Shown here in pieces: positions 2,664 to 31,239 of a stretch of DNA of 64,000 bases. Below the pieces are notes generated by a model. It was not told where the DNA came from and searched no databases. It saw only the letters and a program-made list of their open reading frames with translations. Origin of the DNA: Chitinophagia bacterium (GTDB taxonomy: Bacteria > Bacteroidota > Bacteroidia > Chitinophagales > Chitinophagaceae); contig JBKCOY010000066.1 of NCBI GenBank assembly GCA_046309555.1, positions 2,694 through 66,693 on the forward strand, read 5' to 3'. The translations under genes were made by a program, and so were the position numbers. The stretch's first letter is position 1; each line of letters begins with the position of its first letter.

Positions 2664-5597
2664 ATGACAAGGAATATAGTAGTATTGCTCTTTCTGTTAG
2701 GTATCTCTCTGAATTTGTTTTCACAGAAAAAACCATTGGATCACAGCGTCTATGATGGCTGGCAGTCTATTGGGGAAAGAAAAATAAATGCATCAGGTGA
2801 ATGGATTGCCTATGTGATTGATGTACAAGAGGGTGATGGCAATCTGATCATCCAAAAAACAGATTCGTCTTTTCAGCAATCTTTTCCGAGAGGTTATGGG
2901 TCAAATTTCTCATACGATGGAAGGTATCTTGTATTCAAAATAAAACCTCCGTATGCTGATGTTAGAAATGCCAGGATCAAAAAGAAAAAGCCTGAAGACA
3001 TGCCCAAGGATTCACTCGCTATTTATGATCTTTTAACTCAAACAGTAGAAAAAATCGCAAATATATCCGCCTTTAAAATGCCGGAGAAATCTGCCGGTTT
3101 CCTTGCTGTTCACATGCTGAAAAAGCCTGCTGATACAACACGGAAACCACCATCAAAGGATACTGTTGTTGTTTCAAAAGATACAGTGAAAAAGAATATC
3201 CCTCTGATCATTGAACAAGTCCCCGATAAAAAACAAAAAAGAAAACTAAGCGGCAAAACCGAACAGGATGATGAAGACTTTGAGTTTGATGCTGATGGCG
3301 ATGAAAATGCTGCTGGCCCCGTTCAGGAAGGAACAGAACTCCTGGTATACCAATTGGGCTCTACCAAGAAATTGTCATTCCCACTGGTGAATGAATTTTA
3401 CTGGAGTGATAATGCCAAAATTCTTTTGCTGGAAACATCCGGCAGCAAGTCAGATAAATCCATCAAACCTTCAGTTTCCATCTGGCGCTCTGCAGAAGAC
3501 AGGACTGACACATTGTTGAAAGGCGGTAATGATTTTAAAAATTTTGCGATCGATGACAATGGTTATCAGATCGCCTTTCTTGCTGAAAGAGATAGTGCCT
3601 TCAAGTCACTTCAAAAGTTTTATAAACTCTGGTACTGGAGAAATGGTGACAAAGAGGCTACTGTGCTGGCAGATAAGTTTACAAGAGGGATGAAGGCCAA
3701 TTGGACCGTCAGTGAAAATTCTTCACCCAATTTTAGTCGTTCTGGGAAAAAAATATTTTTCGGTACCGCACCCATCAAGCCTATCAGAGATACTTCTTTG
3801 ATCGATATGGACCTTGTGAAACTTGATATCTGGCACTATAACGACGATTATCTTCAGTCCTATCAACTGAAAACCGTTGATCAGGAAAACAGACGATCTT
3901 ACCTATCATCTGTTGATCTGTATAGCAAGTCTTTTGTTCAGCTAGGCGATACGGATGTTCCATCCATTGTTACTTCAAAAGAGGGTGATGGAAACCTCAT
4001 CATTGGAGTAACCGATAAAGGGAATCGTATTGCTATGCAGTGGGAGGGTGGAACAAAGAAATCAATCTATTTGATTGATCCGGTTTCAGGTGATAAGAAA
4101 AAAATAATTTCCGATCTGAACGGAATGCCGCAAATGTCTCCAGATGGCAACTATGTAATTTGGTACGACATGGTTCAAAAAAACTATTTTACATATAGCA
4201 ATGGTATCACTGCCAATATCAGCAAATCAATCCCCCATAAATTATACGATGAAGAATACGATATGCCTTCAGAGCCCACACCCTACGGTATCATGAGATG
4301 GCATCAACAAGATTCATTTGTATATGTATATGACCGCTATGATATATGGCGACTTGATCCTGCCGGTAAGAAATCACCCTTGAATATCACATCCGGTTTG
4401 GGTAGAAAAAATGCATTGTCTTATCGATATGTCAATCTTGACCCCGAAGAAAAATATCTTACTTCAGAGCAAACGATTGTTTTGAAAACTTTCAATGAAA
4501 AAAATAAAAATGCAGGACTGTCCAGTTTGAAGATCTGCTGTGGCAATGCTCCTGTTGAATTACAATCCGGTCCCTTCGCTTTGGGTCTCATACTCAAAGC
4601 CAGATCATCAGATAATTATATCTATACGAAGGAAACTTTTTCCAAATCTCCCGATGTGCATTTTTCTCCAGATCTTAGAACAGACAAAAAATTAAGCGCT
4701 ATCAATCCCCAGCAATCATCTTACAACTGGATGACTGCTGAACTCTATACCTGGAAAGCCTATGATGGGAAAACCGCTACAGGTATTGTATACAAGCCGG
4801 AAGGATTTGTTCCCGGTAAAAAGTATCCGATGATCGCGTATTTCTATGAAACATTGTCTGATGGTTTATACAATTATCAGGCACCTTCTCCAACCCCCAG
4901 TAGACTCAACATACCTTTCTTTGTGAGTCGCGGTTATATTGTACTTGCTCCAGATATTCATTATAAAGATGGATATCCCGGAAGAGCAGCTTTTGACTAT
5001 GTTGTGAGTGGTGCGAGATCTCTGGTGAAAAAAGGTTGGGTTGACAGCACCAAGATGGGCATACAAGGACAAAGCTGGGGAGGATATCAGGTAGCACATA
5101 TCATTACCAGAACTCCATTGTTTGCTGCCGCATGGGCAGGAGCACCTGTAGCTAACATGACGAGTGCATACGGTGGTATTCGCTGGGAGAGTGGCATGAA
5201 CAGGCAATTCCAGTATGAAAAATCTCAGAGTCGCATCGGAGCAACTCTCTGGCAAAAGCCTCAGTTGTATATAGAAAATTCACCTTTGTTTCATTTGCCA
5301 AAAGTGAAAACTCCTTTGGTGGTCATGTCGAACGACAATGATGGTGCCGTTCCCTGGTATCAGGGTATTGAAATGTTTACTGCCATGCGAAGGTTGAACA
5401 AAAAAGTATGGCTCTTGAATTATAATGGTGAAGCACACAACCTGATAGAACGAAAGAACCGCAAGGATATACAAATAAGGGAGCAGCAATTTTTCGACTG
5501 GTTGTTGAAAGGAGAGAAGCCTTCGGTTTGGTTAATGGAAGGGGTGCCTGCAATTGACAAAGGAAGGAGTTGGGGTCTCGAGTCCAGCCTCAATTGA
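2664..5597 (+). CDS. Secreted S9 family (prolyl oligopeptidase-like) peptidase
   Basis: Signal peptide, beta-propeller-like N-region, nucleophile GQSWGG, candidate Asp (NDNDG) and His (EAHN). Confidence 0.9.
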   Translation: MTRNIVVLLFLLGISLNLFSQKKPLDHSVYDGWQSIGERKINASGEWIAYVIDVQEGDGNLIIQKTDSSFQQSFPRGYGSNFSYDGRYLVFKIKPPYADVRNARIKKKKPEDMPKDSLAIYDLLTQTVEKIANISAFKMPEKSAGFLAVHMLKKPADTTRKPPSKDTVVVSKDTVKKNIPLIIEQVPDKKQKRKLSGKTEQDDEDFEFDADGDENAAGPVQEGTELLVYQLGSTKKLSFPLVNEFYWSDNAKILLLETSGSKSDKSIKPSVSIWRSAEDRTDTLLKGGNDFKNFAIDDNGYQIAFLAERDSAFKSLQKFYKLWYWRNGDKEATVLADKFTRGMKANWTVSENSSPNFSRSGKKIFFGTAPIKPIRDTSLIDMDLVKLDIWHYNDDYLQSYQLKTVDQENRRSYLSSVDLYSKSFVQLGDTDVPSIVTSKEGDGNLIIGVTDKGNRIAMQWEGGTKKSIYLIDPVSGDKKKIISDLNGMPQMSPDGNYVIWYDMVQKNYFTYSNGITANISKSIPHKLYDEEYDMPSEPTPYGIMRWHQQDSFVYVYDRYDIWRLDPAGKKSPLNITSGLGRKNALSYRYVNLDPEEKYLTSEQTIVLKTFNEKNKNAGLSSLKICCGNAPVELQSGPFALGLILKARSSDNYIYTKETFSKSPDVHFSPDLRTDKKLSAINPQQSSYNWMTAELYTWKAYDGKTATGIVYKPEGFVPGKKYPMIAYFYETLSDGLYNYQAPSPTPSRLNIPFFVSRGYIVLAPDIHYKDGYPGRAAFDYVVSGARSLVKKGWVDSTKMGIQGQSWGGYQVAHIITRTPLFAAAWAGAPVANMTSAYGGIRWESGMNRQFQYEKSQSRIGATLWQKPQLYIENSPLFHLPKVKTPLVVMSNDNDGAVPWYQGIEMFTAMRRLNKKVWLLNYNGEAHNLIERKNRKDIQIREQQFFDWLLKGEKPSVWLMEGVPAIDKGRSWGLESSLN

Positions 5598-19707: not shown

Positions 19708-19715
19708 TAAATTTG
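19708..19715 (+). promoter_or_regulatory. -7 promoter element TAAATTTG for sdhCAB
   Basis: TAnnTTTG match 29 nt before ATG 19745. Confidence 0.6.
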
Positions 19716-19744
19716 TGCGATTTTATAATCGAGAAATTAAGTCT

Positions 19745-20455
19745 ATGAACTGGAGTAAACTTTTTACCTCATCCATCGGAAAAAAAATTGTGATGGCCCT
19801 TACGGGTGTCTTCCTTGTTGTTTTTCTGGTGGTCCATTGCTATGTAAATGCTAATGTCTTCTTTTCCCATGCTGAAGAAAATTTCAATAGAGCAGCCCAT
19901 TTCATGGGGACAAACATCCTTATCCGAATTACAGAGTTAGGATTGTTCGCTGGCTTCATCCTGCATATTGTTCAGGGATACAAGCTCTGGTTGCAGAACA
20001 AATCAGCACGAAAAAGTCGCTATGCCGTTACGGCCGGAAATCAAACCTCCAAATGGTATTCCAGGTCCATGGCGCTGCTGGGAACTTTGATCCTGTTGTT
20101 CCTGATTGTTCACCTCGTTCATTTCTGGGTACCCTCACGTTTTGGAGGATTAGAGCCAGTAACCTACAATGGTATAGAGCATCACAATCTATATGCCCAG
20201 ATGAAAAATGTATTTGCAGAACCCATCTGGGTTATCCTCTACCTCATCGGTTGTTTCTCACTTTCCTGGCATCTGCTTCATGGCGTACAAAGTGCGGCAC
20301 AAACCCTCGGATGGACCAGTAAAAATTTCTTTCCAACCATAAAGGCTTTCGGTATCGTATTCGCTATTGTTGTTCCCTTGATCTTTGCCCTGATGCCACT
20401 TTTCATGCATTTTGGCTGGGAGATCAATACCGGTGACTTGACCTTATTGTTTTAA
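19745..20455 (+). CDS. sdhC: Succinate dehydrogenase/fumarate reductase cytochrome b subunit
   Basis: [13 protein letters not shown], five hydrophobic helices, heme-ligand His motifs (VVH, ILH, IVH, SWHLLHG). Confidence 0.92.
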
Positions 20456-20475
20456 ATTTTCCAAAATCATCATAT

Positions 20476-22449
20476 ATGCTTGATGCTAAAATTCCTGCAG
20501 GCGAACTTGATCAAAAATGGACCAAATACAAGGGTTCCGTTAAACTGGTCAACCCTGCCAATAAACGTAAACTGGAAATCATCGTTGTAGGAACCGGCCT
20601 CGCTGGTTCGTCTGCCGCCGCCAGCTTGGGTGAGATGGGTTATAAAGTAAAAGCCTTTTGTTTTCAGGATTCTCCACGTCGTGCGCACTCCATTGCTGCA
20701 CAAGGCGGAATCAATGCTGCCAAGAATTACCAGAACGATGGCGATTCCGTCTATCGTTTGTTCTACGATACCATCAAAGGTGGAGATTACCGTGCAAGAG
20801 AAGGGAATGTACATCGACTGGCAGAGGTTAGCACCAACATCATCGACCAATGTGTAGCACAGGGTGTTCCCTTCGCTAGGGAATATGGTGGATTGTTGAG
20901 CAACCGTTCGTTTGGAGGTACACAGGTACAGAGAACTTTCTATGCAGCAGGACAAACAGGACAACAATTGCTAATAGGAGCTTATCAGGCTCTCGAGCGC
21001 CAGGTTGCCTTGGGCACTGTTGAAATGCATACCCGTCATGAAATGGTGGAACTGGTAATCATAGACGGCAAGGCACGCGGTATTATTGCCCGTAATCTAG
21101 TTACTGGGGAACTCGAAAGACATTTCGGACATGCTGTCTTATTGTGTACAGGAGGATATGGTAACGTGTTCTATCTTTCCACCAATGCCATGGGATCCAA
21201 TGTCACTGCGGCTTGGAAGGCACATAAAAAGGGTGCATATTTTGCCAATCCCTGTTTTACACAGATCCACCCAACCTGTATTCCAGTTTCAGGTGATCAT
21301 CAGTCCAAACTAACCTTGATGTCTGAATCCCTTCGGAATGACGGCAGGATATGGGTGCCGCTCAAGGAGGGCGACAACAGACCGCCCAATGAGATTCCTG
21401 AGAACGAAAGAGATTATTATCTGGAAAGAAGATATCCGGCCTTTGGTAATCTTGTGCCAAGAGACGTTGCATCAAGGGCTGCCAAAGAGCGCTGCGATGC
21501 TGGCTATGGCGTAGGTTCTTCCAAGCAGGCCGTATACCTTGATTATGCAGCCGCCATTCAGCGTTACGGAAAGGCAGAAGTGAACAAGCGTAACCTGGGA
21601 GATGTAAGTGCTGATGTGATCACCCAACTTGGTAAGGATGTTGTCAAGGAAAAATACGGTAATCTATTCAACATGTATGAGAAGATCACCGGTGAGAATC
21701 CCTACGAAGTACCCATGAGAATCTATCCTGCAGTACACTATACCATGGGCGGACTTTGGGTGGATTATGAACTCAAGACAACCATCGATGGATTGTATGC
21801 CCTTGGTGAAGCCAATTTCAGTGAACATGGAGCCAACAGGCTGGGAGCCTCTGCGCTGATGCAGGGACTTGCCGATGGTTATTTTGTGATCCCTTATACA
21901 CTTGGTAACTACCTGGCTGACGATATCAAGACCAATTCAATTCCTACTGATCATCCTGCTTTCGCTGAGGCAGAGAAAATAGCTTCAGATCGCATCAATA
22001 AATTGATGTCGATCAAGGGTAAGCAGACAGTGGAAAGCTTCCATAAGCGTTTGGGTAAGATCATTTGGGACAAATGTGGAATGGCCAGGACTGCTGAAGG
22101 TTTGAAGCAAGCCATTCAGGAAGTAAGGGCGCTGAAAGAAGAGTTCTGGTCTGATGTACGCATACCCGGAAATGTTGGTGAGATGAATCCCGAGCTCGAC
22201 AAAGCTGGTCGTGTTGCTGATTTCATTGAACTCGGAGAGCTGATGTGTCTGGACGCGCTCGATAGGAACGAAAGCTGCGGCGGTCATTTCAGGGAAGAGT
22301 ATCAGACGCCTGATGGTGAAGCCCTCAGGGATGATGAGAATTACATGTACGTGGCTGCATGGGAAAACAAAGGCTCATCTGAATGGCAGCTCCACAAGGA
22401 GACATTGAACTATGAAATTGTAAAACCAAGTCAGCGTAGTTATAAATAA
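20476..22449 (+). CDS. sdhA: Succinate dehydrogenase/fumarate reductase flavoprotein subunit
   Basis: [49 protein letters not shown]. Confidence 0.96.
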
Positions 22450-22470
22450 CAAATAAGACAAACAACGTAT

Positions 22471-23232
22471 ATGCAACATTATACAATGAACCTCACCTTG
22501 AAGGTATGGCGTCAGCGGAACAACAATGAGCAGGGACATTTTGAGACCTATGATGTGAAGGATATTTCTTCAGAGATGTCATTCCTGGAGATGTTTGATG
22601 TGTTGAATGAAAGGCTGATTGCTGCAGGCAATGATCCGATTGCTTTTGATCATGATTGCCGTGAAGGAATCTGCGGAATGTGTTCGATGGTGATTGATGG
22701 AAGGCCCCATGGTCCATGGAAAGGAACTACCACCTGCCAGTTGCACATGAGGGCATTTAAAGATGGTGATGTAATCACGGTTGAGCCATTCAGGGCCAAT
22801 GCCTTTCCGGTGGTCAAAGACCTTATGGTGAGCAGAAGTGCTTTTGACAGGATCATTCAGTCTGGTGGATATATTTCCGTGAATACGGGAAATGCAGTGG
22901 ATGGCAATTCAATTCCAATAGAAAAAGATCATGCCGATGATGCATTTGCAGCAGCAGCCTGTATCGGTTGTGGCGCCTGTGTTGCCGCCTGTAAAAATGC
23001 TTCAGCCATGTTGTTTGTTTCTGCCAAAGTATCTCACCTGGCATTGCTTCCACAAGGTGAGCCAGAGAGGAAACAACGTGTTGTCAGCATGATTGCACAA
23101 ATGGACAAAGAAGGTTTCGGCAGTTGTACAAACACGTACGCTTGTGAGGCAGAATGTCCTAAGGAGATTTCTGTGCTAAACATTGCCAGGTTGAACAGGG
23201 AATACCTGAATGCCAACTTGTCTGGTCAGTAA
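22471..23232 (+). CDS. sdhB: Succinate dehydrogenase/fumarate reductase iron-sulfur subunit
   Basis: [31 protein letters not shown] cysteine clusters. Confidence 0.96.
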
Positions 23233-23283
23233 TTAGCAATTTCCCGATAATTTATTCTGATACGCCCTTTATTGGGCGTATTT
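23164..23283 (+). repeat. Direct repeat copy 1 (last 22 codons and stop of sdhB, plus terminator)
   Basis: Matches 24654-24774 with 4 substitutions and 1 indel; first 50 bp identical. Confidence 0.95.
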
Positions 23284-23287
23284 TTTT
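23260..23287 (+). terminator. Intrinsic terminator of sdhCAB
   Basis: atacgccc-tttatt-gggcgtat 8-bp stem followed by a T run. Confidence 0.88.
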
Positions 23288-23415
23288 ATTTCAATATTCA
23301 AAGCTTAAATTTTGTCTGCACGGTAAATGATATTTTCTAGGGAAAATCATTTCGGGGATTCAAATAGCAAGAAGGGAGATATAATGGGTGTTTTATCATT
23401 TATTTTCCATTATTC

Positions 23416-23464
23416 AGGATTAAAATCCGTAATAATGGCAATATTTAAGGATTGAAATCCGTAA
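23416..23464. promoter_or_regulatory. Tandem palindromic operator-like sites GGATT-NN-AATCC
   Basis: aggattaaaatccgtaa (23416-23432) and aggattgaaatccgtaa (23448-23464), 32 bp apart. Confidence 0.65.
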
Positions 23465-23470
23465 ATCATG

Positions 23471-23478
23471 TAATTTTG
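23471..23478 (+). promoter_or_regulatory. -7 promoter element TAATTTTG for the ATPase gene
   Basis: TAnnTTTG match 17 nt before ATG 23496. Confidence 0.6.
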
Positions 23479-23495
23479 TCGGAAAGGTTGATTTT

Positions 23496-24617
23496 ATGAT
23501 AGAGCGTTCACTTGAGAAAACAATACGGTCAAAGCTTAAAACCGGGAAGGCAATTATTTTGATGGGAGCTCGTCAGGTGGGTAAGACAACCTTATTGAAA
23601 AAACTATTTGAAGATGATCGTGATGTTTTGTGGTTGAGTGGTGACGAAAAAGACGTACAGGATTTGTTTCTGCATAGTTCATCAACGCGTTTGAAGGCGT
23701 TTTTTGGGAAGAATAAAACAGTGATTATTGATGAGGCGCAACGCATCCAGGAAATAGGGTTGCGCATGAAATTGATTACTGATCAGATACCGGAGGTTCA
23801 ATTGGTAGTAACAGGAAGTTCTTCTTTTGAGTTGGCCAATCAAATCAATGAACCGCTTACAGGGCGTAAATGGGAGTATAAAATGTATCCCATATCATTT
23901 GGTGAAATGGTAACCAACCATGGGCTATTGGAAGAAAAGCGCTTGTTGCCGCACAGAATGGTGTATGGGTACTATCCAGAAGTGGTGAATCATATTGGTT
24001 CTGAGAAGGAAATATTAAAACAACTGTCAGATAGCTTTTTATATAAAGATGTTTTGCTGTTGGATCAGATCCAAAAGCCCGATGGGTTGATCAAACTGCT
24101 ACAAGCATTGGCCTATCAGGTCGGTTCTCAGGTTTCTTACAATGAATTGTCACTGTTGACAGGCCTGGATGCCAAAACGGTGGACAAATACATAACTGTT
24201 TTGGAGCAGGCATATGTTGTTTTCAGGCTTGGTTCTTTCAGTAGAAATCTTCGTTCGGAATTGAAAAAGAGCCGGAAAATTTATTTTTACGACAATGGCA
24301 TTCGAAATGCCTTGATTGCAAATTTCAACCAGCTTGAGAGCAGGCAGGATGTTGGGGCGCTTTGGGAGAATTTTTTAATGGCAGAGCGAAAAAAATATCT
24401 TGAATACCATCAACAATGGAGCAACGTTTGGTATTGGCGCACAACGGAGCAGGCAGAGATTGATTATGTGGAGGAAGAGGGTGGAAAGATCAATGCGTAC
24501 GAAATGAAATGGAATGAAAACGCGAAACATAAGCTTCCCCGCCTTTTTCTGAATACCTATCCAGATAGTGTTTTCAAGGTGATACATCCGGGTAATGTGG
24601 AGGATTTTTTGTTATAA
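23496..24617 (+). CDS. AAA_14 ATPase with C-terminal DUF4143-like domain (COG1373-type)
   Basis: Walker A GARQVGKT, Walker B VIIDEAQ, VTGSSS, KSRKIYFYDNG, C-terminal EIDYVEE...AYEMK. Confidence 0.88.
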   Translation: MIERSLEKTIRSKLKTGKAIILMGARQVGKTTLLKKLFEDDRDVLWLSGDEKDVQDLFLHSSSTRLKAFFGKNKTVIIDEAQRIQEIGLRMKLITDQIPEVQLVVTGSSSFELANQINEPLTGRKWEYKMYPISFGEMVTNHGLLEEKRLLPHRMVYGYYPEVVNHIGSEKEILKQLSDSFLYKDVLLLDQIQKPDGLIKLLQALAYQVGSQVSYNELSLLTGLDAKTVDKYITVLEQAYVVFRLGSFSRNLRSELKKSRKIYFYDNGIRNALIANFNQLESRQDVGALWENFLMAERKKYLEYHQQWSNVWYWRTTEQAEIDYVEEEGGKINAYEMKWNENAKHKLPRLFLNTYPDSVFKVIHPGNVEDFLL

Positions 24618-24653
24618 GTTCCATTTTATTGCGCTACAATATTTCATCTAGAA

Positions 24654-24774
24654 GAGATTTCTGTGCTAAACATTGCCAGGTTGAACAGGGAATACCTGAA
24701 TGCTAACCTGTCTGGTCAATAATTAGCAATTTCCCCTATAATTTATTCTGATACGCCCTTTATTGGGCGTATTT
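24654..24774 (+). repeat. Direct repeat copy 2 (orphan sdhB 3' end encoding [22 protein letters not shown], plus terminator hairpin)
   Basis: Same peptide as the sdhB C-terminus, three synonymous changes; hairpin at 24751-24772 with shortened T tract. Confidence 0.95.
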
Positions 24775-24799: not shown

Positions 24800-25924
24800 T
24801 TATCTAGGCCAGTAAAGAAATCCGCTTATCTTCCTGTTGTACCTGCTGGCTGAAGCATTGATCGCCTTGAGATAGACTGTAGTTTCAGGAAATGCAAGCA
24901 ACAACTCTTCCAATGCATAGATGGAGGAAGAAGGTACATAGGGTTTGTTATAATCAGTCCTTGTTTTATCTGGAGCATAATTGGTTTTCACAAATTCAAC
25001 ATGTACATTGTTGGCAGGGTCAATGAGAAAAGGTTTCCAATAGTTCATCATGTCCTGAACGGAAACATTGATGTTGTTCTTTCTGTTCTTGAATGTGTTC
25101 ATGGCATCATATCCTTCAAAAAAAGCCTTGGCCTTGAATATTCTGGCATAAAACGACAGGTTGTAAGCATGATAGGCAAAGGCATCTCTGCTGATCAGAT
25201 CTTCCGACTTTCCACCTGCCATAACGTTTACGTTAAGCAGAGTAGTATAAGCGACGGCTGCATAATCAAGGAGGTTTTGGGAATCCAGTAAAAACCCAAA
25301 ATAATAAATAAAATTCATCCGGATGGTTTCCCAATTATTGACCCTCGCTGGAAAGTTCTTGAATACCAGCGCTCTTGCATTGATCCATGTGTCCACCTTG
25401 CTTCTGTCTGAAGTTGTCATCCTGCTTCTAACCACGGAATAGGCCTCATAAAATGCAAGATAAGATGTTTCATTGGGGAGATGTGTTGTCGCAGTATTGC
25501 CAAAATTCACCCAGGCCAAAAGAGTGCTTACCACTTTGTCAAAATAGGGCTTTGCTTCATCCGGACTTTTTTCATATAACATCAACCAGCGCAGGGCCAA
25601 AATTTTACAGTCAGTTGCTTGACTGGAAATATTCGAAAAATTATCTGAATTCACTTCCTTGAAAAGTGAGGGTGATTTACTCAGTGCTGCAAGAGAAGGA
25701 GAGTTGATGATGCTTGCAACTGCAGATGACATATCAGTATTGCTTTCAGTCTCGAGTTTGATATACGCTAATGTGATAGAGTCTGCTAAAAGATTAACAG
25801 GAAACCTAGTGTCCTGGACTATTGGTGTTATTGGAACCACAGGTGCCACTGGCGCTGCTGGATCCTTCTTTTTACAAGCGGAGAAAAAAATGAAAAACGA
25901 AATAAATATATAAATGTACTTCAT
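24800..25924 (-). CDS. Lipoprotein, probable alginate-lyase-fold (alpha/alpha toroid) polysaccharide lyase family
   Basis: Lipobox FSAC followed by KKKD; NNW motif and RDAFAYHAY motif resembling the NN(H/W) and RD..HYH..Y motifs of this family. Confidence 0.6.
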   Translation of the reverse strand: MKYIYIFISFFIFFSACKKKDPAAPVAPVVPITPIVQDTRFPVNLLADSITLAYIKLETESNTDMSSAVASIINSPSLAALSKSPSLFKEVNSDNFSNISSQATDCKILALRWLMLYEKSPDEAKPYFDKVVSTLLAWVNFGNTATTHLPNETSYLAFYEAYSVVRSRMTTSDRSKVDTWINARALVFKNFPARVNNWETIRMNFIYYFGFLLDSQNLLDYAAVAYTTLLNVNVMAGGKSEDLISRDAFAYHAYNLSFYARIFKAKAFFEGYDAMNTFKNRKNNINVSVQDMMNYWKPFLIDPANNVHVEFVKTNYAPDKTRTDYNKPYVPSSSIYALEELLLAFPETTVYLKAINASASRYNRKISGFLYWPR

Positions 25925-27789: not shown

Positions 27790-30700
27790 GTGGTATCCAA
27801 AAGGATAATCGCCCTGTTGTTTCTGACGATTGGAGTACTGGTTTCTCAAGGCCAGGACATCTCCAATATCAGAACAAAACTTTACAGAATCTCGGGAGAA
27901 ACAATTTTAATTGATAGTTCAGTTGTTGTTCCCAACTCATTAAAAATCAGCGGAGTAGACTCCGCTGATTTTGTTATGGATTATACCCGGGGATTGCTAA
28001 ACTGGAAGAAGATTCCACCTCTAAAGGAGATATGGATATCTTACCGGGTGATGCCGTTTTCACTTGGTCAGGTCAGCAAAAGGTTATCTTTTGACAGTGT
28101 TTTCTACCGATTCGGAATCACACCAGAAAAACTTTCCGGAAAAACCTCGAACCAGAAGCCTTTGGACTTCGGCAAGCTATCCTCCAACGGCAGTATCGGC
28201 CGTTCACTGTCTTTCGGAAACCGGCAGGATGCCGTTTTCAATTCCAGTCTTAACCTCCAACTGAATGGTTACATGGGCGACAGCATCCTCATCAATGCTG
28301 CCATTTCAGACAACAATATTCCTATTCAGCCGGATGGCAATACACAGAATCTGAACGAATTTGATCAGGTATACATTCAGTTTTCCAAGGAGAAATGGAA
28401 ACTCTCCGTGGGAGATCTTGACATCCGACAAAACCAGCAGTATTATCTGAATTTTTACAAAAGACTACAAGGCATATCCTATGCAGCTGAAACGAATATA
28501 AGTCCCACCATAAAAAATCAGGTGCTTGCCAGTGGGGCAGTGGCAAAGGGTAAATTCACCAGAAATGTTTTTCAGGGTGTCGAGGGTAATCAGGGTCCAT
28601 ACCGGTTAAAGGGTGCCAATCAGGAACTGTTTTTCATTGTGCTTGCGGGAACAGAGAGAGTATTTATAGATGGTGAATTGATGCAGAGAGGAGAGGATCA
28701 GGATTATGTGATCAATTACAATACGGCGGAAGTTACTTTCATGCCCAAACAGATGATCACCAAGGACAAAAGGATACAGATTGAGTTTGAGTATGCCGAC
28801 AGGAATTTTCTGAATTCCCAATTGTATCTCAATAACAAAATTGAAGTGGACAAGAAGCTCAGTATTTCAGTGGGGTATTTTGGAAATACAGATGCAAGAA
28901 ACTCCCCGATCAACCAGACCCTGGATGCAGGGCAGAAGCAGTTCCTCTCTTCCATTGGCAACAACATCAATCAGGCTTTTTACCCTGCGGCCGTTGCTGA
29001 TACATTTTCGCAAGGTAAACTCCTTTATAAAAAAACAGATACACTTCGCAGCAATGGCAAACGCGATACAATTTTTGTTTATCAGAAAACAGTTGCCCCT
29101 GATCTTTATGCTCTCTCTTTTTCTGACCTGGGTGAAGGCATGGGTAATTACGTATTAGACAAAGAAATTGCTGCCAATGGTAAGGTATTCAAATGGGTGG
29201 CGCCAGACGCGCAAACAGGTAAAAAATCAGGTCGATATGAACCTGTGATACTCCTGGTAGCGCCAAAAAAGCAATCCATTTTCTCGGTTTCCGCAAAGTG
29301 GAATGCAACTGAGAATACCAGTCTGGCAGCAGACCTTGCTTTGAGCAATTATGATCCCAATCGTTTTTCGAATGTAAACGGACAGTATGGACAGGCAGCG
29401 AGGATCATTTTCGACAATACCCAATTGTTGAACCGTGACAAAGGCGTATCACTCAAAACCAATTTGAATGCAGAGTATAACAGTTCCGGATTCAAACCGG
29501 TGGAGCGATTGAGAACAGTTGAGTTTACGAGAGATTGGGGACTGGATCTGGTGGTGATACCGGCTGAAGAGAAATTGTTAAGAAGTGAATTCATGGTTGA
29601 AGACAAAGAAGGATCATCACTCAATTACCAGTTGGGTGGCTATTCCCGAAACAGTGATTTCAAAGCCATACGGAATCAGTTGATGCATAAGGTAAGTAAG
29701 AAAGGATGGGTGTTGAACAATCAATTCTCGCTGACTTCATTTAACGATGATCTGCAAAAAGGATTTTTTCTGAGACCAATCGTGGATGTTTCCAAGAAGA
29801 TCCCAAGTTTATCCAATCGGGAGTTTTCTGCCAGGTACACTTTGGAAAATACCACCACAACCAACAAGACAACTGAAGCACTCACCCCAGGTAGTTTTTC
29901 ATTTAGCACTTTACAAGTGGCAACCCAATCCGATCCGGAAAAAGCAAACAAATGGGGCTTGAAATATTTTACAAGAACTGATGCGTTACCCCTTGGTAAA
30001 GAACTGCTACGATCTGATCAAAGTCACAATATCAATCTGAATGGTGAATGGATGTCGAATGAGCACCATCAGATACGGTTTAATGCTACCTATCGGAAAC
30101 TCAAGGTCATCAATGATCTTTTCAATACCCGTCCGGATGAAGCAATCCTGGGCAGGGTGGAATATTTTACGGATCTATGGAAGGGTGCCATCAATGGAAC
30201 AACCTTGTATGAATTGGGAAGCGGGCAGGAACCGAGAAAAGATTTTACATATTTTGAAGTACCTGCTGGACAGGGAGAATATGCATGGATAGATTATAAC
30301 AATGATGGATTGCAACAGATCAATGAATTTGAGGTGGCAAGGTTCCGGGATCAGGCAAGGTTCATCAGGGTTTTTACCCCAACAAGTGAATTCATCAGAG
30401 CTGATTACCTCAATTATAATTATAACCTTGTCTTCAATCCTTCATTGGCACTGAAACAGGAGAGGGGTAGTCTGTTAGAAGAGTTTTTGAAAAGAATTTA
30501 TTTTCAATCTTCTCTTCAGGTCACAAACAAGCAAACCGCAAATGGTAACCGAAATTTCAATCCCTTTTCCGGCAATTTTGTAGATACCAGCCTGATTACG
30601 AATGAGAGGATACAAAGTCATACACTCTCCTATAACAGATTGAGTCAGGTATGGGGAATTGATCTGAATTATCTGCAAAACGGAAACAAAGCATTTCTTT

Positions 30701-31239
30701 CTTATGGATTTGAAACCAGGGATTTTAAAGATCTATCTCTTCGTGTTAGAAGCAACTGGATCAAAATGTTTACCCTGGATCTTATAGCGAAAACAAACCA
30801 AAATGTATTGAAGACTCCTGGATTTCAAAACAGAAATTACTCGGTGAGATCAAATGTATTGGAACCGAGGCTAACCTTCACCTACGGAACCAAACTCAGG
30901 TTGCAGGCAGGTTATAAAAATGACAACAAACAGAACGGAAACACTGAATCAGCCAAAATAAAAACAGTTTCTGTAGATGGCAAATACAACTTGGTTTCGA
31001 ATACTTCTGTTGCTTCGAAACTTTCATTGAGCAACATCAGTTTCAATGGTGTTCCTTCTTCAACCCTTGGATATGTCATGCTGGAGGGGTTGCAACCGGG
31101 TAAGAATTTCATCTGGACCATGGATGTTACCAAGAGGCTGGGTGCATTCATGGAGATCAGTATTCAATACGAGGGGAGGCAGTCAGGAACTTCCGGGATG
31201 GTACATTTGGGCAGAGCCCAGGTAAGGGCTCTGCTCTGA
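27790..31239 (+). CDS. Large (1149 aa) exported hypothetical protein, probable outer-membrane beta-barrel; GTG start
   Basis: Signal peptide, extensive alternating beta-strand pattern in the C-terminal half, ends with HLGRAQVRALL. Confidence 0.7.
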   Translation: MVSKRIIALLFLTIGVLVSQGQDISNIRTKLYRISGETILIDSSVVVPNSLKISGVDSADFVMDYTRGLLNWKKIPPLKEIWISYRVMPFSLGQVSKRLSFDSVFYRFGITPEKLSGKTSNQKPLDFGKLSSNGSIGRSLSFGNRQDAVFNSSLNLQLNGYMGDSILINAAISDNNIPIQPDGNTQNLNEFDQVYIQFSKEKWKLSVGDLDIRQNQQYYLNFYKRLQGISYAAETNISPTIKNQVLASGAVAKGKFTRNVFQGVEGNQGPYRLKGANQELFFIVLAGTERVFIDGELMQRGEDQDYVINYNTAEVTFMPKQMITKDKRIQIEFEYADRNFLNSQLYLNNKIEVDKKLSISVGYFGNTDARNSPINQTLDAGQKQFLSSIGNNINQAFYPAAVADTFSQGKLLYKKTDTLRSNGKRDTIFVYQKTVAPDLYALSFSDLGEGMGNYVLDKEIAANGKVFKWVAPDAQTGKKSGRYEPVILLVAPKKQSIFSVSAKWNATENTSLAADLALSNYDPNRFSNVNGQYGQAARIIFDNTQLLNRDKGVSLKTNLNAEYNSSGFKPVERLRTVEFTRDWGLDLVVIPAEEKLLRSEFMVEDKEGSSLNYQLGGYSRNSDFKAIRNQLMHKVSKKGWVLNNQFSLTSFNDDLQKGFFLRPIVDVSKKIPSLSNREFSARYTLENTTTTNKTTEALTPGSFSFSTLQVATQSDPEKANKWGLKYFTRTDALPLGKELLRSDQSHNINLNGEWMSNEHHQIRFNATYRKLKVINDLFNTRPDEAILGRVEYFTDLWKGAINGTTLYELGSGQEPRKDFTYFEVPAGQGEYAWIDYNNDGLQQINEFEVARFRDQARFIRVFTPTSEFIRADYLNYNYNLVFNPSLALKQERGSLLEEFLKRIYFQSSLQVTNKQTANGNRNFNPFSGNFVDTSLITNERIQSHTLSYNRLSQVWGIDLNYLQNGNKAFLSYGFETRDFKDLSLRVRSNWIKMFTLDLIAKTNQNVLKTPGFQNRNYSVRSNVLEPRLTFTYGTKLRLQAGYKNDNKQNGNTESAKIKTVSVDGKYNLVSNTSVASKLSLSNISFNGVPSSTLGYVMLEGLQPGKNFIWTMDVTKRLGAFMEISIQYEGRQSGTSGMVHLGRAQVRALL

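Follow-up and report, generated by a model that had tools for sequence, protein, structure and literature searches.

How does a single gene come to lie between two copies of the end of a housekeeping gene that has stayed intact, with no recombinase beside it? The question is raised by a 64,000-nucleotide (nt) stretch of contig JBKCOY010000066.1, here called the window, from the 2.44-Mb metagenome-assembled genome (MAG) of a freshwater member of the Chitinophagaceae. The 3' end of sdhB is followed there by an islet of 1370 bp (23284-24653) with one open reading frame (ORF), whose product is an ATPase with AAA_14 and DUF4143 domains, and then by a second, orphan copy of the sdhB end. The islet is very probably a cassette of the candidate defence family PDC-S01 that was inserted with a long target duplication. 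The best overall explanation, which we hold to be probable, combines an acquired PDC-S01 cassette, a 120-bp duplication of the sdhB end and an origin anchored on homology.

The sdhB end is duplicated around a one-gene islet

The two direct repeats (copy A, 120 nt, joined to sdhB; copy B, 121 nt; Table 1) begin 1490 bp apart and contain the last 22 sdhB codons, the stop codon and the terminator. They are identical over the first 50 and last 37 nt, and all five differences between them fall within 34 nt. Three are coding and synonymous (GCC/GCT at 24704, TTG/CTG at 24708 and CAG/CAA at 24719), the same 22-residue sdhB C-terminus being encoded by both copies, and two lie past the stop codon (an inserted C at 24733 and G/T at 24737). 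The repeat occurs twice in the 2.44-Mb genome and is otherwise unique, and the pair is the sole long direct repeat of the window. A preliminary description of this locus had given the coordinates, spacing and silent differences of the repeats and the lack of a recombinase; each of these factual statements held on re-analysis, and the anatomy of the repeats bears out its view that sdhB is intact with a spare sdhB end downstream.

Searches of the islet detected no recombinase, tRNA, Rfam match or terminal inverted repeat, and no integrase was found in the islet or its neighbourhood, either in the window or in other assemblies. The GC content of the islet is 38.6% versus 42% for the window, and its GC content at third codon positions equals that of its neighbours; composition carries no signal as to origin. 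Several familiar classes of element were considered and rejected. An insertion sequence or transposon does not fit an islet without inverted repeats at its ends or a transposase domain, flanked by a 120-bp duplication whose counterparts around orthologs vary from 30 to 170 bp. The flanking repeats consist of sdhB coding sequence and terminator, not attC, and there is no integrase in the neighbourhood covered by the 64-kb window, which leaves an integron gene cassette without support. A tRNA-linked island was discounted because no tRNA was found, and a riboswitch or small RNA because nothing matched Rfam.

The arrangement recurs in independent assemblies

The structure was checked against further public assemblies. 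Contigs from at least 10 samples encode exactly these sdhB and ATPase proteins. The entire sdhB-copy-islet-copy arrangement is present on an ENA contig of 52 kb (L015), a JGI contig of 2.9 kb (L021) matches the window without a difference through both copies, and three Logan unitigs of 1430 bp represent exactly the islet bounded by the repeat, as expected of a k = 31 graph. The islets of other strains all hold only the single gene, and the alginate-lyase-like neighbour on the right is kept in other assemblies.

An assembly artefact, by which one contig came to combine two strain-specific versions of the sdhB end or to take in a small circle, might be suspected in a MAG of 169 contigs, the more so as many public contigs break at the repeat. 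Against this, the same path was produced by several assemblers from several samples, the 52-kb contig among them, and both junctions lead to the same unique 1370-bp islet. Furthermore, the longest stretch over which copies A and B are identical is 50 nt, so that the A-B form can be resolved without ambiguity at k >= 55. An extrachromosomal circle threaded into the contig is unlikely, both junctions having been assembled repeatedly. Since independent assemblies carry the arrangement, an artefact is very improbable. The preliminary description would have been overturned by a chimeric assembly of two strains; instead, contigs from several assemblers and samples span both copies.

The cargo is a candidate ATPase-nuclease of the PDC-S01 family

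On its profile matches, the cargo is a member of PDC-S01 (COG1373), a candidate defence system in PADLOC. The PADLOC profile PDLC04789 aligns full-length, with the same domain order, to residues 1-372 (E = 1.4e-165), and Pfam matches AAA_14 (1.6e-30) and DUF4143 (7.4e-40), the latter of which has been placed in the PD-(D/E)XK nuclease superfamily (PMC3424549). The predicted layout is an AAA+ ATPase (ORC/STAND-like), a helical or winged-helix region and a PD-(D/E)XK nuclease-like domain. Walker A, Walker B and the residues D323...E336-x-K338 are invariant in 30 homologues, comprising 29 orthologues and a paralogue from the same genome (L014, contig C17). A sequence search against the PDB returned no match; the AlphaFold model (predicted local distance difference test score 88) has its best PDB fold matches in the archaeal AAA+ ATPases SSO1545 and PAB2304, ORC/Cdc6 and STAND proteins, and matches MuB, IstB and RuvB as generic AAA+ folds only.

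Among the candidate defence systems of prokaryotes, PDC-S01 reportedly ranks fourth in frequency, and such candidates still await experimental validation (PMC12988326). The family is defined by sequence only, and the cargo of the window is likewise a sequence-based, candidate defence protein, which most likely serves as an ATP-dependent nuclease against phages or mobile DNA of other kinds. The literature mentioning DUF4143 or PDC-S01, as far as it is searchable, is silent on mobility and on flanking duplications.

The conserved unit is smaller than the islet. Homology with 14 orthologous cassettes begins at islet position 119-140 (window 23402-23423) and ends at the stop codon; because it spans the first operator to the stop codon, the outer 123 nt and 36 nt of the islet lie outside the conserved unit. 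Neither of these spacers is common to any orthologous cassette. The left spacer, which has no second copy in the genome, probably represents either filler or sequence that surrounded the cassette in the donor. Within it, 23308-23333 is 73% similar to 23472-23497 and was considered as a relic of an older cassette promoter; the likeness was treated as chance. Upstream of the gene, 23407-23495 is a putative promoter with operator: a twin GGATTnnAATCC layout is kept upstream of orthologs in Chitinophagaceae, Flavobacterium and Bacteroidales, and a predicted -7 box follows the Bacteroidota promoter consensus, TAnnTTTG.

The cassette is foreign to this genome

The cassette is 91% identical in nt (95% in amino acids, aa) to a copy in a congener (G004) whose core genes are only ~66% identical to those of the window, and it is this contrast that marks the cassette as foreign. 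In the congener the copy stands in a different context, beside a second, paralogous cassette. The four closest sister species have sdhCAB at 73-80% identity and lack the ATPase gene; they also show no synteny at the locus. Orthologs at 56-81% aa identity are scattered over Bacteroidota and occur sporadically in Treponema, Margulisiibacteriota, Desulfobacteraceae and others. The identity contrast, together with the lack of a recombinase, supports the earlier proposal of a foreign, integrase-free, one-gene insertion.

Additional cassettes of the family were seen in both genomes. In G004 (L110/L002, contig C185) the 95%-identical ortholog stands in tandem with the second, diverged AAA_14-DUF4143 cassette, which has its own twin palindrome (TAATCACCAAAAAG...TTGGTGATTA, two units spaced 33 nt); the tandem suggests that cassettes accrete and that operator specificity changes along with the protein. 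Contig C17 of the window's own genome (G000) holds the paralogous PDC-S01 cassette mentioned above (L014 700-2700; 29% aa identity) inside an ABC-transporter operon. Direct repeats of 46 nt, 1301 bp apart and with 91% identity to each other, enclose this cassette, and a third, inverted copy of this repeat flanks an adjacent 23S_rRNA_IVP gene; the operon looks like one that took up two small cassettes in succession. The genome also contains ~35 dispersed arrays of a 9-nt tandem unit, (CTTCAACNN)3-7, in both orientations (for example C34:41624-41677, C65:11076-11138 and C102:5660-5722), one of which is part of the ORF for an ABC-2 permease and gives rise to a TSTPST run in the protein. Such arrays border the C17 cassette and the tandem pair of G004, and might act as insertion hot spots; the window islet contains none.

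The duplication footprint belongs to the gene family and not to sdhB

Is the duplication a property of the target or of the cargo? Flanking direct repeats were scored at a length of >= 28 nt and E <= 1e-6. Orthologous ATPase loci were positive in 13 of 77 cases, and flanking repeats in inverted orientation in none of the 77. Among 80 other sdhB loci from a metagenome scan, none above 90% aa identity to the window sdhB, no duplicated end or element was found. Neighbouring ORFs in the same ATPase loci were positive in 3 of 115 cases, or 2 of 114 after removal of another AAA_14-DUF4143 gene (p = 2e-4). For ORFs of similar size in the window's own genome the count was 3 of 482, and two of the three were DUF4143 genes, leaving 1 of 480 unrelated ORFs; two of the three DUF4143 genes of that genome thus carry the footprint. 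The footprint belongs to the gene family.

Two of the control positives merit description. The removed one (L176:2604-3881), in an Ignavibacteriaceae MAG, is an AAA_14-DUF4143 paralogue beside the ortholog, and its perfect 56-nt direct repeat suggests a recent insertion. The third own-genome positive (G000 C154:5107-6204, minus strand) is flanked by 32-nt repeats of 91% identity, and its 365-aa product has a match in neither Pfam nor PADLOC; this ORF is the only other own-genome positive among ORFs of 300-450 aa.

About 8 of the 13 positive loci are clear duplications of local unique sequence. In L115 the duplicated target is the 3' end of gmd, in L177, L181 and L125 that of another gene, in L122 and L144 intergenic DNA and in L130 the point at which two genes abut; the orthologous cassettes are sited behind gmd, before a DegT-like gene, between genes and elsewhere. 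In Flavobacterium laiguense (L130), comparison with relatives L204 and L205 reveals an empty site with a single copy of the ~85-nt segment that is duplicated around the cassette. The search proposed earlier, for homologous ATPase genes flanked by duplicated gene ends, was thereby successful. Belliella spp. (L184, L186 and L187) differ in that a 61-nt twin-palindrome operator block stands on both sides of the ATPase gene (2935-2995 and 4123-4183), so that the flanking repeat there is cassette and not target sequence.

The same results bear on a cis-mobilizable-element (CIME)-like relic, that is, an integrase island at an attachment (att) site in the sdhB 3' end that was reduced by deletion to one gene. 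Repeats that include a gene 3' end with silent differences are typical of phage 21 and e14 in icd, and an islet without integrase would be expected of such a relic. The comparison of the islet with islands that use gene ends as att sites nevertheless failed: none of the 80 related sdhB loci has a duplicated end or element, no assembly has an integrase nearby, all strains carry the single gene only, and orthologous cassettes with the same footprint occur at many unrelated targets, where the duplication is a separate one in each case and the repeats vary in length. A relic of this kind is very improbable.

A footprint specific to the DUF4143 family, in the own genome as in the controls, would also suit a PDC-S01 protein that is itself a mobility enzyme, which would bind the twin palindromes and make widely staggered nicks, the operator-to-stop cassette being autonomous. 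The sharp cassette limits at operator and stop codon, kept even in the 91%-identical copy, point in the same direction, as do the invariant nuclease triad and Walker motifs, the AAA+ fold generically like MuB and IstB, and the operator pair on both sides of the Belliella gene. However, the islet borders have no terminal repeats or conserved end motifs and the spacers vary, and a duplication is absent or undetectable at 64 of the 77 orthologs. The sharp limits are moreover functional limits, for which selection alone suffices, and the structural likeness is generic for AAA+ proteins, the reading being built on sequence and a model. We consider such an enzyme improbable. A related and hardly less doubtful proposal is that AAA_14-DUF4143 genes are autonomous one-gene mobile elements, whose ATPase-nuclease recognises its own promoter palindromes and makes widely spaced breaks; if true, they would form a new mobile-element class without transposase or integrase, and might also explain long target duplication at other nuclease genes.

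The two copies probably stem from different sdhB alleles

The background of strain variation amounts to 29 differences in 12.7 kb (~2 per kb). Five differences in 121 nt exceed it (Poisson p ~1e-5) and are clustered (p = 0.02), and one copy probably came from a different sdhB allele. The preliminary description had reached this point from the silence of the coding differences; that argument is weak alone (for three of three synonymous, p = 0.01-0.03 if only the neutral copy mutates, and 0.05-0.11 if the functional copy may also drift synonymously), and the excess and clustering relative to background are stronger evidence.

The distal copy is polymorphic in the population. It is B-type in the window and in L021, fully A-type in L015, L025, L026 and L210, and mosaic in L211 (GCA_031545555.1 contig start; window 24689-24774), with A at the three coding sites and B at the two post-stop sites. 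Because the distal copy can be B-type, A-type or mosaic, the copies exchange sequence by gene conversion or recombination. One of the A-type contigs (L210, a JGI 3300008261 scaffold) also has a 69-nt in-frame deletion, corresponding to window 24591-24659, which joins the ATPase C-terminus (...KVIHP) to the orphan sdhB end and is either a strain variant or an assembly glitch.

The sdhB-linked copy is A-type in 10 of 10 public contigs examined that carry this sdhB protein. Sister species, 12-30% diverged, have GCC and TTA codons, slightly closer to A, and were judged uninformative as to the native copy. The earlier suggestion that B is the displaced native tail is not favoured, given that all sdhB-linked copies are A, that the sister species are slightly A-like and that two possible empty-site contigs (described below) are A.

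The clearest allelic signature comes from an ortholog. In Flavobacterium soyangense (L115) the displaced and linked ends of gmd differ by 13 synonymous and 5 non-synonymous substitutions and an in-frame codon indel. The displaced end is of an allele type (PSKSKK-LGW) found in some relatives, the linked copy being of type PTKSKTQLGW, and its full-length C-terminal frame is intact; to judge by these features, it clearly evolved as part of a working gene in another lineage. When L115:2740-2810 is compared with 4480-4547, the linked gmd is seen to stop short (LKLY*), its customary C-terminus (KDGGYTTLNYFE*) being out of frame. A collinear block of gmd and cassette is common to L115 and L122 at 80% identity with unequal duplication extents, which fits homology-anchored transfer of blocks of neighbour gene plus cassette.

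The main rival account is one of self-duplication. Two breaks ~120 bp apart, or on sister chromosomes, and possibly provoked by the cassette's own nuclease, would have been joined to an incoming linear cassette; the copies would at first have been identical (A-A), and a later, short recombination with a diverged allele of sdhB would have brought the B patch into the distal copy. The A-A strains (L015, L025, L026 and L210) exist as such an account requires, and A is the type of every sdhB-linked copy and of the two possible empty-site contigs. Targets vary among orthologs, so each new site needs a fresh duplication, and self-duplication accounts for the colonisation of new targets; both ends of the islet carry non-conserved filler; and double-strand breakage was proposed by Furuta et al. 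as a common cause for nuclease genes. On the other hand, a second event would have had to place a foreign sdhB patch exactly in the non-functional copy, the mosaic L211 would need yet another event, and self-duplication does not account for the displaced copy in L115, on which purifying selection acted while it evolved as a different type of allele. We rate self-duplication as unlikely.

A proposed homology-anchored arrival of the cassette

By a narrow measure, we favour recombination anchored on sdhB homology with DNA of a relative that already carried the cassette beside an sdhB end. The duplication would then not have been cut from the recipient: the incoming DNA, a cassette adjoining an sdhB end, would have recombined through sdhB homology, either by a single crossover of a ~1.5-kb circle or by a homologous crossover on the left combined, on the right, with illegitimate joining within the resident sdhB. 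One copy would be a foreign functional allele and the other the resident, and for this reason the coding differences would be synonymous only. Host recombination would then convert one copy to the other, giving rise to A-A and mosaic strains, and could also delete the islet as a circle. The insertion is harmless because the duplication keeps sdhB and its terminator intact. Both routes had been put forward in the preliminary description, and they are the best mechanistic fit in view of the L115 allele and the polymorphism; either A or B may be the native copy.

Several observations weigh against a homology-anchored origin. No unambiguous empty site at the window locus is present in public contigs. 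In L023 and L024, sdhB-A is joined to the lyase-side flank, and these contigs end 18 and 17 nt past the repeat, a structure that an A-A strain could mimic. L023 stops where a k = 55 graph would merge two paths and could be produced by an A-A strain; L024 runs on into flanking sequence that differs slightly, and may represent a genuine empty site whose sdhB end is A-type. No B-type allele attached to sdhB was found in public data, either on the contigs that carry this sdhB protein or among the 80 scanned sdhB loci, none of them above 90% aa identity, and the synonymous-only pattern has p = 0.05-0.11 if the functional copy drifts synonymously. About 5 of the 13 positive orthologous loci involve repetitive extragenic palindromic (REP)-like or operator repeats that are not clear target duplications, and the displaced copy in L177 is decayed, with stops. 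Homology anchoring explains spread at one locus and not first arrival at new loci, and the sharp cassette limits, from operator to stop codon, could mean a discrete mobile unit with its own mechanism.

Features of the locus

Table 1. Position and basis of the features discussed, in window coordinates
Feature	Position	Strand	Basis or remark
sdhCAB operon	19715..23232	+	intact target cluster; Pfam Sdh_cyt, FAD_binding_2 + Succ_DH_flav_C, Fer2_3 + Fer4
sdhC	19715-20455	+	Pfam Sdh_cyt
sdhA	20476-22449	+	Pfam FAD_binding_2 + Succ_DH_flav_C
sdhB	22471-23232	+	Pfam Fer2_3 + Fer4
Repeat copy A (proximal)	23164..23283	+	functional sdhB end + 51 nt including terminator hairpin
Terminator hairpin of sdhB	23259-23282	+	repeat ends at hairpin
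Left spacer	23284..23406	+	AT-rich (29% GC with promoter region)
Operator-promoter region (predicted)	23407..23495	+	two ~32-nt tandem units, spacing 32
Palindrome GGATTAAAATCC	23417-23428	+	first tandem unit
Palindrome GGATTGAAATCC	23449-23460	+	second tandem unit
Bacteroidota-type -7 box TAATTTTG (predicted)	23471-23478	+	3' of twin palindromes
Cargo gene, 373-aa AAA_14-DUF4143 ATPase-nuclease	23496..24617	+	Pfam, PADLOC
Right spacer	24618..24653	+	36 nt
Repeat copy B (distal)	24654..24774	+	orphan sdhB end + hairpin, then native downstream flank
Alginate-lyase-like gene, convergent	24800..25924	-	Pfam Alginate_lyase 8.2e-07; right-hand native flank marker

Elsewhere in the window, downstream of a GFO/IDH/MocA oxidoreductase gene, an ORF of 1149 aa (27790-31239, plus strand) has no Pfam match at E <= 0.001.

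Comparison with known systems

Phage 21 and e14 integrate site-specifically into E. coli icd and supply a substitute 3' end of the gene. The window locus resembles them in its duplicated 3' end, in a gene kept functional by a copy with mainly silent differences and in an orphan end on the far side. Phage 21 and e14, however, have an integrase and a fixed att site, whereas the window islet has neither and sdhB is not a recurrent target.

Homology-facilitated illegitimate recombination was reportedly described in natural transformation by de Vries and Wackernagel in 2002 and by Prudhomme et al. in 2002. In that process, as would be the case at sdhB, foreign DNA enters alongside a one-sided homologous anchor, the second joint is illegitimate and no enzymes of an element are involved; it fits both the donor-allele signature and the variable duplication extents. 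It differs in that the classical outcome is insertion with deletion and not with duplication, in that the organism of the window is not known to be competent, and in that the window case is read from sequence alone.

The closest parallel is the insertion of restriction-modification (R-M) units and a solitary mcrA with direct target duplications that exceed 30 bp and vary in length (Furuta et al. 2010, PMC2853133, after Nobusato et al. 2000, Gene 259:99). Those inserts have no mobility genes, and their repeats often span a start or stop codon such that the target gene survives; flanking repeats are significantly enriched at R-M units, double-strand breakage has been proposed as a common cause, and amplification is the only step shown experimentally (PMC2853133). 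The window islet likewise is a small nuclease unit without transposase or integrase (1370 bp, under the 20-kb criterion of Furuta et al.), flanked by a duplication of more than 30 bp of an otherwise unique target, with the target gene intact and with enrichment over other genes. In both settings the repeats can support amplification or excision, and the empty site called for by Furuta et al. is available for the L130 ortholog (vs L204 and L205). The differences are threefold. The cargo is one AAA+/PD-(D/E)XK gene with no methyltransferase and not an R-M pair, so that the nearest published case is the solitary mcrA; the host is a freshwater member of the Chitinophagaceae and not a classic naturally competent species; and the window copies differ by a clustered silent patch that is polymorphic in the population.

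The interest of the locus lies in the family-wide pattern and the polymorphic population more than in the single site. The footprint in relatives at other sites suggests how PDC-S01 genes spread: as a compact cassette of promoter and gene, placed beside housekeeping genes that remain unharmed and leaving a long, imperfect target duplication. One insertion existing in three states (B-type, A-type and mosaic) offers a natural system in which host recombination can be tested against the action of the encoded nuclease, and orphan gene ends beside singleton defence genes may serve as a general marker of recent gene flow. Taken together, the comparisons identify PDC-S01 as a new cargo family for a known, mechanistically unexplained type of insertion, whose footprint was first described 25 years ago for R-M genes.

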